The notes under the pieces were generated by a model. That model saw only the letters and a program-made list of their open reading frames with translations, searched no databases and was not told the origin of the DNA. Below are positions 5,224 through 56,870 of a stretch of 64,000 bases of DNA, one piece after another (the first letter of the stretch is position 1; each line of letters opens with the position of its first letter). Origin of the DNA: Escherichia coli. GTDB taxonomy: Bacteria; Pseudomonadota; Gammaproteobacteria; Enterobacterales; Enterobacteriaceae. The position numbers and the translations under genes were made by a program. Location: the NCBI RefSeq assembly GCF_003334785.1, contig NZ_QOWV01000005.1. One strand, 5' to 3'.

Positions 5224-6030
5224 ATGTCTGTGGTAATTAGTGATGCATGGCGTCAGCGTTTTGGTGGCACAGCGCGTCTGTATGGTGAAAAAGCGTTGCA
5301 ACTGTTTGCTGACGCGCATATTTGTGTGGTTGGTATCGGTGGTGTCGGTTCCTGGGCGGCGGAAGCGCTGGCGCGCACGGGGATTGGCGCAATCACGCTT
5401 ATCGATATGGATGATGTGTGCGTCACCAATACCAATCGGCAAATTCATGCCCTGCGCGATAACGTTGGGCTGGCAAAAGCGGAAGTTATGGCGGAGCGTA
5501 TTCGCCAGATTAACCCGGAGTGCCGTGTAACGGTGGTGGATGATTTCGTGACGCCGGATAACGTAGCGCAGTATATGAGCGTGGGTTATTCGTACGTGAT
5601 TGATGCCATTGATAGTGTACGGCCCAAAGCGGCGCTGATTGCTTATTGTCGGCGCAATAAAATCCCACTGGTCACAACCGGTGGCGCGGGTGGGCAGATT
5701 GATCCGACGCAGATTCAGGTTACCGATCTGGCGAAAACGATTCAGGACCCGCTGGCGGCGAAGTTGCGCGAGCGCCTGAAAAGCGATTTTGGCGTAGTGA
5801 AAAACAGTAAAGGTAAGCTCGGCGTGGATTGCGTGTTTTCTACTGAAGCGCTGGTGTACCCGCAGTCAGACGGTACGGTGTGTGCGATGAAAGCCACGGC
5901 AGAAGGGCCGAAGCGGATGGATTGTGCATCTGGATTTGGCGCGGCAACGATGGTGACCGCCACCTTTGGGTTTGTTGCGGTTTCTCATGCGCTGAAGAAG
6001 ATGATGGCGAAAGCGGCGCGTCAGGGTTAA
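5224..6030 (+). CDS. tcdA: tRNA threonylcarbamoyladenosine dehydratase (ThiF/MoeB E1-like)
   Basis: 268 aa; Rossmann motif VVGIGGVGSWAAEALARTGIG; sequence matches TcdA/CsdL from memory. Confidence 0.85.
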   Translation: MSVVISDAWRQRFGGTARLYGEKALQLFADAHICVVGIGGVGSWAAEALARTGIGAITLIDMDDVCVTNTNRQIHALRDNVGLAKAEVMAERIRQINPECRVTVVDDFVTPDNVAQYMSVGYSYVIDAIDSVRPKAALIAYCRRNKIPLVTTGGAGGQIDPTQIQVTDLAKTIQDPLAAKLRERLKSDFGVVKNSKGKLGVDCVFSTEALVYPQSDGTVCAMKATAEGPKRMDCASGFGAATMVTATFGFVAVSHALKKMMAKAARQG

Positions 6031-6035
6031 ACAAT

Positions 6036-6067
6036 CAGGTCGGATGAGACGCGAACGTCTTATCCGA
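6036..6067. terminator. Palindromic hairpin between convergent tcdA and csdE
   Basis: GGTCGGATGAGACG…CGTCTTATCCGACC, a near-perfect inverted repeat. Confidence 0.5.
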
Positions 6068-6080
6068 CCCGGTTCTGTGC

Positions 6081-6524
6081 TTAAACCTGCTTCGTCGCAG
6101 CGATAATCGCCTCGCTTAACGCATTTAACCCCTGGCTGCGTGAGGCGCTAAGCTGCGCACGTAATCCCAGCTCATCAAACAATGCCAGTGGTGACTGTGC
6201 CTGCAACTCGGCGGCGGTTTTCCCCTCAACGGCAGTCAACAACACCGCCAGCAGGCCGCGCACAATGCGCCCTTCGCTGTCGCCAAAGAAATGCATTTTG
6301 CCGTTTTCAGCCACTGTATATCCCAGCCAGACGCGGTTTTCGCATCCGGCAATCTCTTTAGCCTGCGCTTTTAACTCGTCTGGCAATGCCGGAAGCTGTT
6401 TCCCCAGCATGATCAACTGGCGATATTTATCTTCCCATTGCGTCAACGGTGCGAAGGTATTGCGTAACGTTTCTGCGGTTACGGTTGTGCCGAACGGATG
6501 TCCGGCGAATTGCGGGTTTGTCAT
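6081..6524 (-). CDS. csdE: Sulfur acceptor protein CsdE (SufE-like)
   Basis: 147 aa SufE-family protein; its start overlaps the csdA stop (TAATG). Confidence 0.85.
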
Positions 6525-7729
6525 TAATCCACCAATAATTCCAGCGCGCGGTCAACGGCATTCACCAGCGCATCCACATCACTCTTTGTATTATATGGCG
6601 CAAAAGAGGCGCGCAGTGTGCCGGTTACGCCTAATTCTGCCAGTAGCGGCTGAGCGCAATGCTGCCCGGCCCGCAGGGCAATACCGTACTCCGCCAGCAG
6701 CGTCACCATATCGCTATGATGAACGCCAGCAAAATCAAAGGCCAGCAGGCTGGAATCCTGGCAGCGGAATGAACGAAAGCCGGGACGTTTCGCCAGCGCA
6801 TCTTCCGCCAGCGTTGCTAAGCTACGGCTCCAGCTTTCGGCCTGGTTGATATCGTAATCTGCCAGCCATTCCAGCGCCGCGCTTAATCCTATGACACCAG
6901 CGACATTTGGCGTTCCAGCTTCCAGTTTCCACGGCGCAGATTGAGTCGTGAAGCCGTCAAAACTCACTTCGTGAACCATTTTGCCGCCGCCCAGCCAGGG
7001 CGACATCGCCTCCAGCAGTTCTGATTTACCATACAGCACGCCGATACCTGTCGGGCCATACAGTTTGTGACCTGAAAAAGCATAGAAATCAATATCCAGT
7101 TGCTGAACATCCGCGGGGAAATGCACTGCCCCCTGAGCACCATCAACCATCACCACCATCCCGGCTGAATGAGCAAAGGTAATCGCTCGCGCCAGATCCG
7201 GGCAACCGCCAGTAACGTTCGACATCTGACCCAACGCCAGAATCCGACTACGGGGAGTAATCAGTTCTGGCAACAAATCGACATCCGGCAGTCGCTGCGC
7301 ATTAAGCGGCAATTTCACCACTTTGGCTCCAGTTTGTTGGGCGACCATCAGCCAGGGGACGAGGTTGGCGTGGTGTTCTGCCACGCTGACAATAATCTCA
7401 TCGCCCGGTTGCAGACGCGGACGCGCATAGCATTGTGCCACCATGTTGATGGATTCAGTGGTGCCGCGCGTCCAGACGATAGTTTTATCATCCGGTGCAT
7501 TCAGTAATTGCGCCACTTTCTCTCGTGCAGCTTCATAACGCGCGGTCAGGCGTTGGGCTTCGGCAAACTGGCTGCGATGGACGTTTCCGGCGCTCAGACT
7601 GTAAAACTGTTGGGTGGCTTCAACCACGGCTTCAGGTTTAAGCGCGGTCGCGGCGCTGTCGAGATAGACGCCCGCATCCTGTAGTGCGGGAAACTGGGCG
7701 CGAAACTGCGCGGGATTAAAAACGTTCAT
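6524..7729 (-). CDS. csdA: Cysteine desulfurase / sulfinate desulfinase CsdA
   Basis: ORF 6524..7765; start [20 protein letters not shown] at 7729 gives 401 aa; class V aminotransferase fold. Confidence 0.9.
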
Positions 7730-16831: not shown

Positions 16832-17019
16832 AGCATCCTCTTAGGTTCAGAAGCTTAAGCACGTAATCGGTTATGTTTTCAAAAGTGCAAAACCAGCGAG
16901 TTCGGGCTTCATATCAGTGAATATTTGCCTGTCTGAAATGAACTCATGGATTCATTTTCAAATAAAAAACGCTCTGTAATATGACGGCGGTCACACTTAT
17001 TAGCTAGAAGGTGACTTTA

Positions 17020-17035
17020 TGTGACTACCATCACT
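17020..17035. promoter_or_regulatory. CRP-like site in the fucPIK/fucAO divergent control region
   Basis: TGTGACTACCATCACT matches TGTGA-N6-TCACA at 9 of 10 positions. Confidence 0.45.
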
Positions 17036-50546: not shown

Positions 50547-50652
50547 AGGTCTCTAGTAATTGAAATAATAAATAACATGGAAAGCAGAGGTGTTGTGTGA
50601 GAGTAATCACGCTTCTGCTTTTTAAAATTATTTGACAATACGAATATCACAC

Positions 50653-50668
50653 TGTGATTACGATCACA
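50653..50668. promoter_or_regulatory. Consensus CRP site in the yqcE/ygcW divergent control region
   Basis: TGTGATTACGATCACA is a perfect TGTGA-N6-TCACA. Confidence 0.65.
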
Positions 50669-50721
50669 TTAGCAGTTATGCCCTTATGCTAAAAATTATC
50701 TCCAGTTACCAGAGATAATGA

Positions 50722-50768
50722 GAAAGGTAACTTCCCTCTCGCGGGGGAAGTTACCTTTCTTTTTTTTT
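50722..50768 (+). terminator. Strong intrinsic terminator in the ygcW 5' leader, 25 nt before the start codon
   Basis: GAAAGGTAACTTCCC-TCTCGCGG-GGGAAGTTACCTTTC (perfect 15-bp stem) followed by T9. Confidence 0.7.
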
Positions 50769-50792
50769 GCCTTACGGAAATTGGAGCTAACT

Positions 50793-51578
50793 ATGTCAAT
50801 CGAATCTCTCAATGCGTTCTCAATGGATTTTTTCTCCCTGAAAGGTAAAACCGCAATTGTTACCGGTGGGAATAGCGGTTTAGGCCAGGCATTTGCCATG
50901 GCGTTGGCCAAAGCTGGCGCAAATATCTTTATTCCTAGTTTCGTCAAAGATAACGGCGAAACAAAGGAAATGATTGAAAAACAGGGTGTTGAGGTGGACT
51001 TCATGCAGGTGGATATCACCGCAGAAGGCGCGCCGCAGAAGATTATCGCTGCTTGCTGTGAGCGTTTCGGTACAGTTGATATTCTGGTTAACAATGCCGG
51101 TATTTGTAAGCTGAATAAGGTGCTGGACTTCGGTCGTGCCGACTGGGATCCGATGATTGATGTGAACCTGACCGCCGCATTCGAGTTAAGCTATGAAGCT
51201 GCAAAAATTATGATCCCGCAGAAAAGCGGCAAAATTATTAATATCTGTTCATTGTTCTCTTACTTAGGTGGACAATGGTCACCTGCATATTCTGCCACTA
51301 AACATGCTCTTGCCGGGTTCACCAAAGCTTATTGTGATGAACTAGGTCAATATAATATTCAGGTAAATGGTATCGCCCCTGGCTATTATGCAACAGATAT
51401 TACGCTGGCGACACGCAGTAATCCAGAAACCAATCAGCGCGTTCTTGATCATATTCCGGCAAACCGTTGGGGCGATACTCAGGATTTAATGGGCGCAGCC
51501 GTATTCCTCGCAAGTCCGGCATCGAATTATGTCAACGGGCATTTATTAGTGGTTGATGGCGGTTATTTAGTGCGCTAA
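50793..51578 (+). CDS. ygcW: Short-chain dehydrogenase/reductase (KduD-like) YgcW
   Basis: ORF from 50718; ATG at 50793 with GGAG RBS gives MSIESLNAF… and 261 aa; TGGNSGLG Rossmann motif. Confidence 0.8.
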   Translation: MSIESLNAFSMDFFSLKGKTAIVTGGNSGLGQAFAMALAKAGANIFIPSFVKDNGETKEMIEKQGVEVDFMQVDITAEGAPQKIIAACCERFGTVDILVNNAGICKLNKVLDFGRADWDPMIDVNLTAAFELSYEAAKIMIPQKSGKIINICSLFSYLGGQWSPAYSATKHALAGFTKAYCDELGQYNIQVNGIAPGYYATDITLATRSNPETNQRVLDHIPANRWGDTQDLMGAAVFLASPASNYVNGHLLVVDGGYLVR

Positions 51579-56294: not shown

Positions 56295-56870
56295 TCAAAG
56301 TAATTTTTTCGCTAACGTCCAGACCCCGGTATTCGTGGTGGAAAGCGCCACGACACCCGCGTTAATCGCATTACGCGCATCTTCTTCATCGCACACCAGC
56401 CCACCGGCAATCAGCGGTTGGCGGATTTTCTCTGTCACCCAGCCCAGCACTTTGGGCATACAGCCTGGCAGGATCTCAATACAATCCGGATTCGATTGCG
56501 CAACTTGCTTATCAATGTTGTGAAACGAAATTGAATCAACAATAAACAGGCGATGAATACAGAAAAAACCTTCCGCTCTTGCCGCTTTCAACATTGAGGC
56601 TTTGGTACTGATAATGCCGTCCGCCTCGGTCACCAGTTTCAAAAACTGAATAACGACTTCTTTATTTGACGCGCCTTCCAGCAAATCAACATGAATAAAA
56701 GCATATTTCCCGGCGTTCTTAATCTTTTTAACGATATTACTGATGGTGCAGATATTGCCGTACAACACGGAAATAAATTGGCATTCAGAATCGATTGCCA
56801 GTTGCAGGCTGGCATTATCTTTAACGGCAGCAATCACCGGATTCTGGCGGAGCAGGTGTAAGAGGGGCAT
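56295..56870 (-). CDS. ygcP: GlpP-like putative RNA-binding transcription antiterminator YgcP
   Basis: 191 aa; GlpP-family assignment from memory. Confidence 0.75.
   Translation of the reverse strand: MPLLHLLRQNPVIAAVKDNASLQLAIDSECQFISVLYGNICTISNIVKKIKNAGKYAFIHVDLLEGASNKEVVIQFLKLVTEADGIISTKASMLKAARAEGFFCIHRLFIVDSISFHNIDKQVAQSNPDCIEILPGCMPKVLGWVTEKIRQPLIAGGLVCDEEDARNAINAGVVALSTTNTGVWTLAKKLL

Follow-up and report, generated by a model that had tools for sequence, protein, structure and literature searches.

A probable chance hairpin over the predicted class II CRP promoter of yqcE-ygcE in Escherichia coli

Genes and mapped transcripts of the ygcW/yqcE region

The divergent ygcW/yqcE intergenic region of Escherichia coli lies at 50.4-50.8 kb of the window, the term used here for the whole 64,000-nucleotide stretch of DNA that was analysed; positions are those of the window unless a K-12 coordinate is given. 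On the minus strand, yqcE, which encodes an MFS transporter, begins with an ATG at 50474, and on the plus strand ygcW, which encodes an SDR oxidoreductase, begins with an ATG at 50793. A 501-bp query matched 5043 of 5426 complete E. coli genomes with 95-100% identity, always in the yqcE-ygcW interval. Between the two genes, an earlier sequence-only reading had marked an inverted repeat at 50581-50625, followed by a run of U, as a hairpin with no gene to terminate, and had offered three explanations for it: that it belongs to the yqcE promoter architecture, that a short divergent transcript has its 3' end there, or that it arose by chance. Neither the list of open reading frames nor the annotation contains a plus-strand gene upstream of the repeat, as that reading had said, and the TTGACA hexamer (50632-50637) and the perfect CRP site (50653-50668) that it had noticed nearby are both in place. 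A 61-bp query for the element matched once, and only once, in each of 4871 E. coli genomes, and this single-copy distribution rules out a dispersed repeat family (REP/BIME, IRU etc.).

Two strains carry lesions at the locus. In E. coli PK8277 (NZ_CP080133.1; extracted locus 5288-6800), two IS1A copies stand on either side of a 47-bp remnant, which matches window 50584-50630 exactly. In addition, yqcE is truncated, and the DNA from ygcW through most of ygcP is deleted. Evidently, the CRP-site region of this strain took an IS1 insertion on each flank. The 47-bp segment was considered as the boundary of a mobile element and rejected, being a remnant between two IS1 insertions with a deletion adjacent to it. 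In E. coli MS20677 (NZ_CP082053.1), a CSF isolate, yqcE has an internal stop and a pseudogene annotation, and the U/A-run of the leader is shorter by one base.

Published transcript coordinates were placed in the window by the relation U00096.3 position = 2951066 - w, where w is the window position. Starts given on U00096.2 were placed via K-12 gene coordinates and an offset between U00096.2 and U00096.3 that we take to be 1978 bp, a value that agrees with the Term-seq coordinates. The two class I starts that fall here lie at 50561/50560 on the minus strand and at 50700-50704 on the plus strand, and are the only ones mapped in the intergenic region; in the dRNA-seq data of Romero et al. 2014 (PMC4681348) they are listed as FWD 2898527-2898528 and RVS 2898384-2898388 (U00096.2). 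The same study reports the short RNAs ecr2775(u+) at 2898527-2898590 and ecr2774(u+) at 2898315-2898388, and confirmed by northern blot the RNA that lies upstream of yqcE. Term-seq analysis by Adams et al. 2021 (PMC7815308) placed 3' ends at 2900556(+) and 2900311(-), equivalent to 50510 and 50755, both of which are inside leader hairpins. The Term-seq tables contain no 3' end on either strand in the K-12 interval 2900400-2900499, and the dRNA-seq data list no plus-strand start between 50561 and 50700, in maps that cover few growth conditions (LB, M9 or M63 glucose). The Cappable-seq supplement (PMC4782308) and the supplement of Kim et al. 2012 (PMC3415461) hold nothing at these coordinates, and the region is absent from the supplementary tables of a survey of bidirectional promoters in E. 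coli published in 2026, which is a weak negative. Because the hairpin lies between the only two mapped starts, it falls in an untranscribed spacer. Transcript starts or ends at the element, for which the sequence-only reading had proposed to look, appear in neither the dRNA-seq nor the Term-seq data, and its suggestion of the 3' end of a short divergent transcript is not supported, there being no plus-strand start upstream and no Term-seq 3' end.

The inverted repeat as a fold and as a terminator

The repeat consists of two perfect 8-mers, AAAGCAGA at 50581-50588 and TCTGCTTT at 50614-50621, with 25 bases between them; the 23-nt loop described earlier is obtained when the G50589-T50613 wobble is counted as a pair. 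Repeat search extended the arms to 13 nt (50581-50593 and 50609-50621) with 85% complementarity, and the full stem of 13 pairs contains five G-C and two G-U pairs and encloses a loop of 15 nt. As plus-strand RNA, a 41-mer folded with -16.8 kcal/mol (z -4.0) and a 61-mer with -20.4 kcal/mol (z -4.3), and not one shuffled sequence folded as well. The minus strand gave a weaker fold (-10.4 kcal/mol, z -2.7), the plus strand folding better because two of the pairs are G-U on that strand. A run of T does follow the 3' arm, as had been claimed, but it is just five T long (50619-50623), and three of these pair with AAA at the foot of the stem; beyond the stem there is TT and then AAAA.

Repeats of this class are common in the window. 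There were 45 perfect inverted repeats with arms of 8 bp or more and a loop of 3-30 nt, against 24 ± 5 in dinucleotide shuffles, and 0.12-0.22 of them are expected per intergenic region of 319 bp. About 0.9% of the 61-nt segments with similar G+C fold at least equally well, at about seven other places in the window. The hairpin thus exceeds chance only weakly, and its fold is on the good side of ordinary, not exceptional.

Intrinsic terminators combine a stable, G+C-rich stem and a loop of about 3-8 nt with a U-tract; they follow a transcription unit on their own strand and coincide with a mapped 3' end. What the hairpin at 50581-50625 has in common with them is the inverted repeat with T residues behind it on the plus strand. 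It differs in its 15-nt loop, its 13-pair stem that is poor in G-C and has two G-U pairs, its tail of 2 T beyond the full stem, the absence of any plus-strand gene or start upstream, and its lack of conservation. The neighbouring yqcE and ygcW leader hairpins show every one of these terminator features. A discriminant of the d'Aubenton Carafa type, computed with modern energy parameters and valid as a relative measure only, gave -41 to -9 for the hairpin, depending on the limits chosen for stem and tail, versus +53 and +32 for the ygcW and yqcE leader terminators, respectively. The free energy per length (-dG/length) was 0.38-0.41 for the hairpin and 0.48-0.69 for the leader terminators, and the tail scores were 2.0-3.9 and 5.6. 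A simple terminator scan picked up only the palindrome of the CRP site in the loop (50595-50612) as terminator-like here.

CRP site 1, the yqcE promoter and the hairpin arms

The loop, which the sequence-only reading had treated as anonymous, holds a CRP site that it missed. This site, TGTGAgagtaaTCACG at 50596-50611 (hereafter site 1), matches the CRP consensus TGTGA-N6-TCACA at 9 of 10 positions. CRP matches with at most one mismatch occur six times in the 64 kb, against 1.8 expected, and two of the six are here, 57 bp apart. The other is TGTGAttacgaTCACA at 50653-50668 (site 2), a perfect match to the consensus. Elsewhere in the window, two more CRP-like sites with one mismatch each, TATGACGGCGGTCACA at 16980-16995 and TGTGACTACCATCACT at 17020-17035, lie 40 bp apart, and this sequence pattern may possibly mark another CRP-controlled region.

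Measured from the class I start of yqcE at 50561 (minus strand), the parts of the hairpin fall on successive parts of a predicted promoter. The 5' arm (50581-50593) occupies -20 to -32, in the spacer between the CRP site and the -10 element. Site 1 is centred at 50603.5, that is at -42.5 or -43.5 from the starts at 50561 or 50560, as converted with the 1978-bp offset. The 3' arm (50609-50621) occupies -48 to -60, overlapping the last 3 bp of site 1 and its upstream flank. What had been read as a U-run belongs, on the yqcE strand, to an A/T tract, TTTTAAAAAG (50619-50628), at -58 to -67 and directly upstream of the CRP site. Sequence and conservation point to TGtTATTTA (50577-50569, minus strand) as an extended -10 element, and no -35 hexamer was found in the yqcE promoter. 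The match to the consensus, the centre near -41.5 and the spacing to the -10 element are, as sequence evidence, those of a class II CRP promoter. In positions 50563-50569, just past the extended -10, K-12 and O157 have TATTTATTATTTC, and most other E. coli and Escherichia species have TATTTCTTATTGC; this lineage difference in the -10/discriminator region could change the strength of the promoter.

The predicted elements of this promoter are widely kept. Loci encoding YqcE relatives were fetched from one genome per species (59 loci, 58 of them with enough upstream sequence), and 56 of the 58 orthologue loci had a CRP-like site upstream of yqcE, at a distance that is nearly constant. These represent more than 20 genera of Enterobacterales, ranging from Escherichia to Serratia, Rahnella, Pantoea and Erwinia. 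A TGnTA follows 18-19 nt past the CRP site in 55 of the 56 (18 nt in this window), and the -10 columns C-A-T-G-n-T-A hold 1.6-2.0 bits in 30 non-Escherichia sequences. Published data also connect CRP with the region. The yqcE-ygcE operon is listed under 'Crp activation' (PMC8085971), and yqcE/ygcW is among the top CRP predictions of PhyloScan (PMC1794230). CRP binding to the intergenic region was detected by ChIP-chip in ETEC (PMC4287617) and in vitro by Footprint-seq, with a Kd of 1.7 nM (PMC12871828); both studies name the site at 50653-50668.

With class II CRP promoters such as galP1, melR and CC(-41.5), the yqcE promoter shares a CRP site at about -41.5 to -42.5 that overlaps the -35 position, the lack of a recognisable -35 hexamer, an extended TGn -10 and A/T-rich DNA upstream of CRP. 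It departs from the textbook arrangement in its centre at -42.5 rather than -41.5, given the dRNA-seq start, and in its -10 hexamer TATTTA, which is poor at the last positions; site 1, moreover, is a predicted site. At class II promoters, the alpha-CTD of RNA polymerase docks just upstream of CRP. We infer that cAMP-CRP would bind the predicted site TGTGAgagtaaTCACG in place of a -35 element of the yqcE-ygcE promoter, and that RNA polymerase would use the extended -10 TGtTATTTA. The A/T tract at -58 to -67 probably seats the alpha-CTD, as a docking or bending tract. The two arms would then be the spacer between CRP and the -10 element and the upstream flank of CRP, made complementary in Escherichia by accident. 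Occupancy of site 1 by CRP, the role of the A-tract and the functionlessness of the pairing are all put forward here as probable readings of this arrangement.

Site 2 is the class II site of the ygcW promoter, whose class I start is the one at 50700-50704 on the plus strand; relative to that start, the hairpin lies at about -81 to -121. As in other divergent CRP-controlled regions, the two promoters stand back to back with one class II CRP site each. Here 57 bp separate the CRP sites and about 141 bp the starts, a spacing kept in many Enterobacteriaceae. Unlike in those other regions, a homologous leader terminator lies downstream of each promoter and adds a second, post-initiation layer of control. 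CRP sites at CytR-regulated promoters are 52-53 bp apart. A CytR-type nucleoprotein complex, with a repressor between the two CRP sites, was considered and set aside: an informal inspection by eye found no CytR-like half-site, and the 57-bp spacing differs. The TTGACA at 50632-50637 was likewise rejected as a -35 element, as it has no acceptable -10 at 16-18 bp downstream and no mapped start, and reads TTGATA in many strains. RpoD genomic SELEX (Shimada et al., PMC3946193) had proposed 'constitutive' promoters with the hexamers TTGACA-16-TGTGAT for ygcW and TTCTCA-18-GATAAT for yqcE, and marked the spacer as bound by H-NS. The proposed hexamer pairs (50632-50637 and 50724-50695, respectively) do not coincide with the dRNA-seq starts.

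Whether the pairing of the arms is maintained was examined in 35 Enterobacteriaceae sequences, aligned without gaps from the CRP site as anchor. In register, 56% of the cells paired (G-U included), compared with 43-50% when the 3' partners were slid by 1-3 columns, a small excess that is to be expected, as the structure was derived from the Escherichia rows. The number of in-register Watson-Crick pairs dropped from 11 of 13 in E. coli to about 2-6 of 13 in other genera. Within Escherichia, 15 sequences were compared (nine E. coli genomes spanning the identity range, together with E. albertii, E. whittamii and cryptic lineages). The arms were identical in nine of them, including most of the E. 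coli sampled, and 6 of the 23 arm columns varied (4/13 in the 5' arm and 2/10 in the 3' arm outside the CRP site). Every substitution weakened or broke a pair, and none was compensated. In the same sequences, the CRP core had no variable column among 16, and the two leader hairpins had one each, among 40 and 58 columns. Information content, calculated from 30 non-Escherichia orthologues with identical spacing, averaged 1.84 bits per column in the CRP 16-mer, against 0.46 in the 5' arm and 0.93 in the 3' arm outside the CRP site. Most of the latter is contributed by GAAG adjoining the CRP site and by four A at 50620-50623 (-59 to -62 of the yqcE promoter), which hold 0.9-1.4 bits per column across genera.

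The maintained base pairing that characterizes a structured RNA is therefore absent here, as pairing is neither conserved beyond the genus nor compensated within it. An Rfam search of 49800-51400 at a permissive E-value returned sub-threshold noise only (SurA with 25.9 bits against a gathering threshold of 100, and L20_leader with 17.6 against 58.7). Judged from these comparisons, the pairing does not appear to be under selection, and the arms are among the less constrained parts of the region. Of the explanations offered by the sequence-only reading, chance is right for the pairing, the arms being unconserved and polymorphic without compensation and the repeat class being common in the window. 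Promoter architecture is right for the location: the element covers -20 to -60 relative to the yqcE start, with the CRP site inside it.

We consider it very likely that 50581-50625 is a chance hairpin lying over the class II CRP promoter of yqcE-ygcE, that is, promoter DNA and not a terminator or a small RNA. Some doubt stays with this verdict because the plus strand folds well and the transcript maps cover limited growth conditions. Those two circumstances bear on the idea that the hairpin and its U5 form a weak terminator for a plus-strand transcript of about 45 nt, arising from a bidirectional yqcE -10 region. Such a transcript would suit the plus-strand fold (-16.8 to -20.4 kcal/mol, z about -4, in the top ~1% of segments with similar G+C) and the strand asymmetry in its favour. 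A sigma-70-like plus-strand match, TTCTCA-16-AATAAT with a TG (50542-50569), would in K-12 set a start at about 50576-50580, at the foot of the hairpin, and bidirectional promoters are reported to be common in E. coli (PMC12825309; bioRxiv 10.1101/2020.01.31.928960). However, dRNA-seq shows no plus-strand start from 50561 to 50700, Term-seq shows no 3' end at the hairpin, and, as a weaker point, the region is missing from the supplementary tables of the bidirectional-promoter study. The final T of AATAAT is lost in most E. coli and other Escherichia, which have AATAAG, and the stem, with its 15-nt loop, five G-C pairs out of 13, 2 U past its end and negative discriminant, is neither conserved nor compensated. 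We regard this weak terminator as very improbable. A narrower version, in which the yqcE -10 region of K-12-like strains also fires in the opposite direction when cAMP is high and yields a plus-strand RNA of about 45 nt from ~50577-50580 that stops in U5, is exceedingly hard to credit; if it exists, this RNA would be divergent and promoter-associated, and making it would compete with initiation at yqcE.

The remaining alternatives assign the repeat to minus-strand RNA or to DNA. A structure in a long 5' UTR of yqcE, transcribed from a distal promoter inside the ygcW leader, could start from the sigma-70-like minus-strand match at 50724-50695, the hexamers of which are identical with those of the putative 'constitutive' yqcE promoter from SELEX. 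Yet those SELEX hexamers are sequence guesses inside a binding peak, not mapped starts, dRNA-seq has no minus-strand start there, and the minus-strand fold is the weaker one, with unconserved pairing; we hold this to be extremely unlikely. The perfection of the 8-bp arms, and their identity in most of the E. coli sampled (9 of 15 Escherichia sequences), would also fit AAAGCAGA and TCTGCTTT being half-sites of an Escherichia-specific DNA-binding regulator that brackets site 1. The arm dyad is centred at 50601, though, 2.5 bp away from the CRP dyad at 50603.5, and half-sites of dimeric regulators are not typically 25 bp apart. Sequence differences occur in the arms of several E. coli lineages and sister species, whereas the neighbouring CRP core and leaders are invariant; the arms are unconserved beyond the genus, and no gene for a DNA-binding regulator is annotated in the examined stretch of the cluster. 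We think such half-sites very unlikely. A chance hairpin over promoter DNA remains the reading that we prefer.

The flanking leaders and YgcP

The real regulatory RNAs at this locus are the two leader attenuators that flank the hairpin, and not the hairpin itself. The yqcE leader (50499-50561, minus strand) and the ygcW leader (50702-50768, plus strand) are homologous, both follow a class II CRP promoter, and both give abundant short transcripts that end at a strong terminator. In the yqcE leader, the terminator hairpin with its U8 (50499-50546) forms the 3' part of ecr2775, contains the Term-seq end at 2900556(+) and is conserved in 55 loci; in the ygcW leader, the hairpin with its U9 (50720-50768) forms the 3' part of ecr2774 and contains the end at 2900311(-). 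The dominant Term-seq 3' ends of both (50510 on the minus and 50755 on the plus strand) lie inside the descending arm of the terminator, 3-6 nt short of the end of the stem and about 10 nt short of where the U-tract ends. These positions suggest either 3' trimming of an A-U-rich stem foot or an unusual release point. In E. coli NCTC9104 (NZ_LR134152.1; extracted locus ~1795-1930), a 67-bp tandem duplication of the ygcW leader, ATTATCTCCAGTTACCAGAGATAATGAGAAAGG...CCTTTCT, creates two consecutive leader hairpins, the first copy of which is without a U-run.

A motif is common to the two leaders, (A/G)TTAC(T/C)-N14-18-GAGAAA(A/G)GTAA(T/C)...CTTTTCTC-T7-9, and a search of the window found its core, GAGAAARGTAAY, only in these two places. 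The motif is kept in 55 loci with yqcE orthologues in Enterobacterales, where the upper stem varies by lineage yet still pairs. No Rfam family matched the leaders (49800-51400). Within the motif, (A/G)UUACU:AGUAA(U/C) is a possible antiterminator helix, as suggested by covariation of its variable pair, which is A-U in 23 sequences and G-C in 21, with one exception; these states track clades and hence represent few independent events.

A candidate for a trans-acting antiterminator of these leaders is encoded in the same cluster. The ygcP gene (56295-56870, minus strand) encodes a protein that matches PF04309 (G3P_antiterm, the glycerol-3-phosphate-responsive antiterminator family) over its full length, with a Pfam E-value of 1.6e-62; a search of YgcP against NCBIfam gave no match, and a full-text literature search on ygcP and antitermination found no paper that mentions ygcP. 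The arrangement resembles GlpP-dependent antitermination in the glpD leader of Bacillus subtilis in that the cluster encodes YgcP, a full-length PF04309 protein, and that leaders containing a terminator start both operons. It differs in that the role of YgcP at the ygcW and yqcE leaders is a candidate role only, and the comparison concerns the leaders and not the hairpin between them.

The assignment made here removes a false terminator or small-RNA candidate, and identifies its DNA as part of the yqcE promoter, namely CRP site, spacer and A-tract. Experimental effort would be better aimed at the leader system than at the hairpin. The analysis also clarifies a poorly studied locus, with mirror-image class II CRP promoters, homologous and deeply conserved leader terminators, and YgcP as the candidate antiterminator acting on them.
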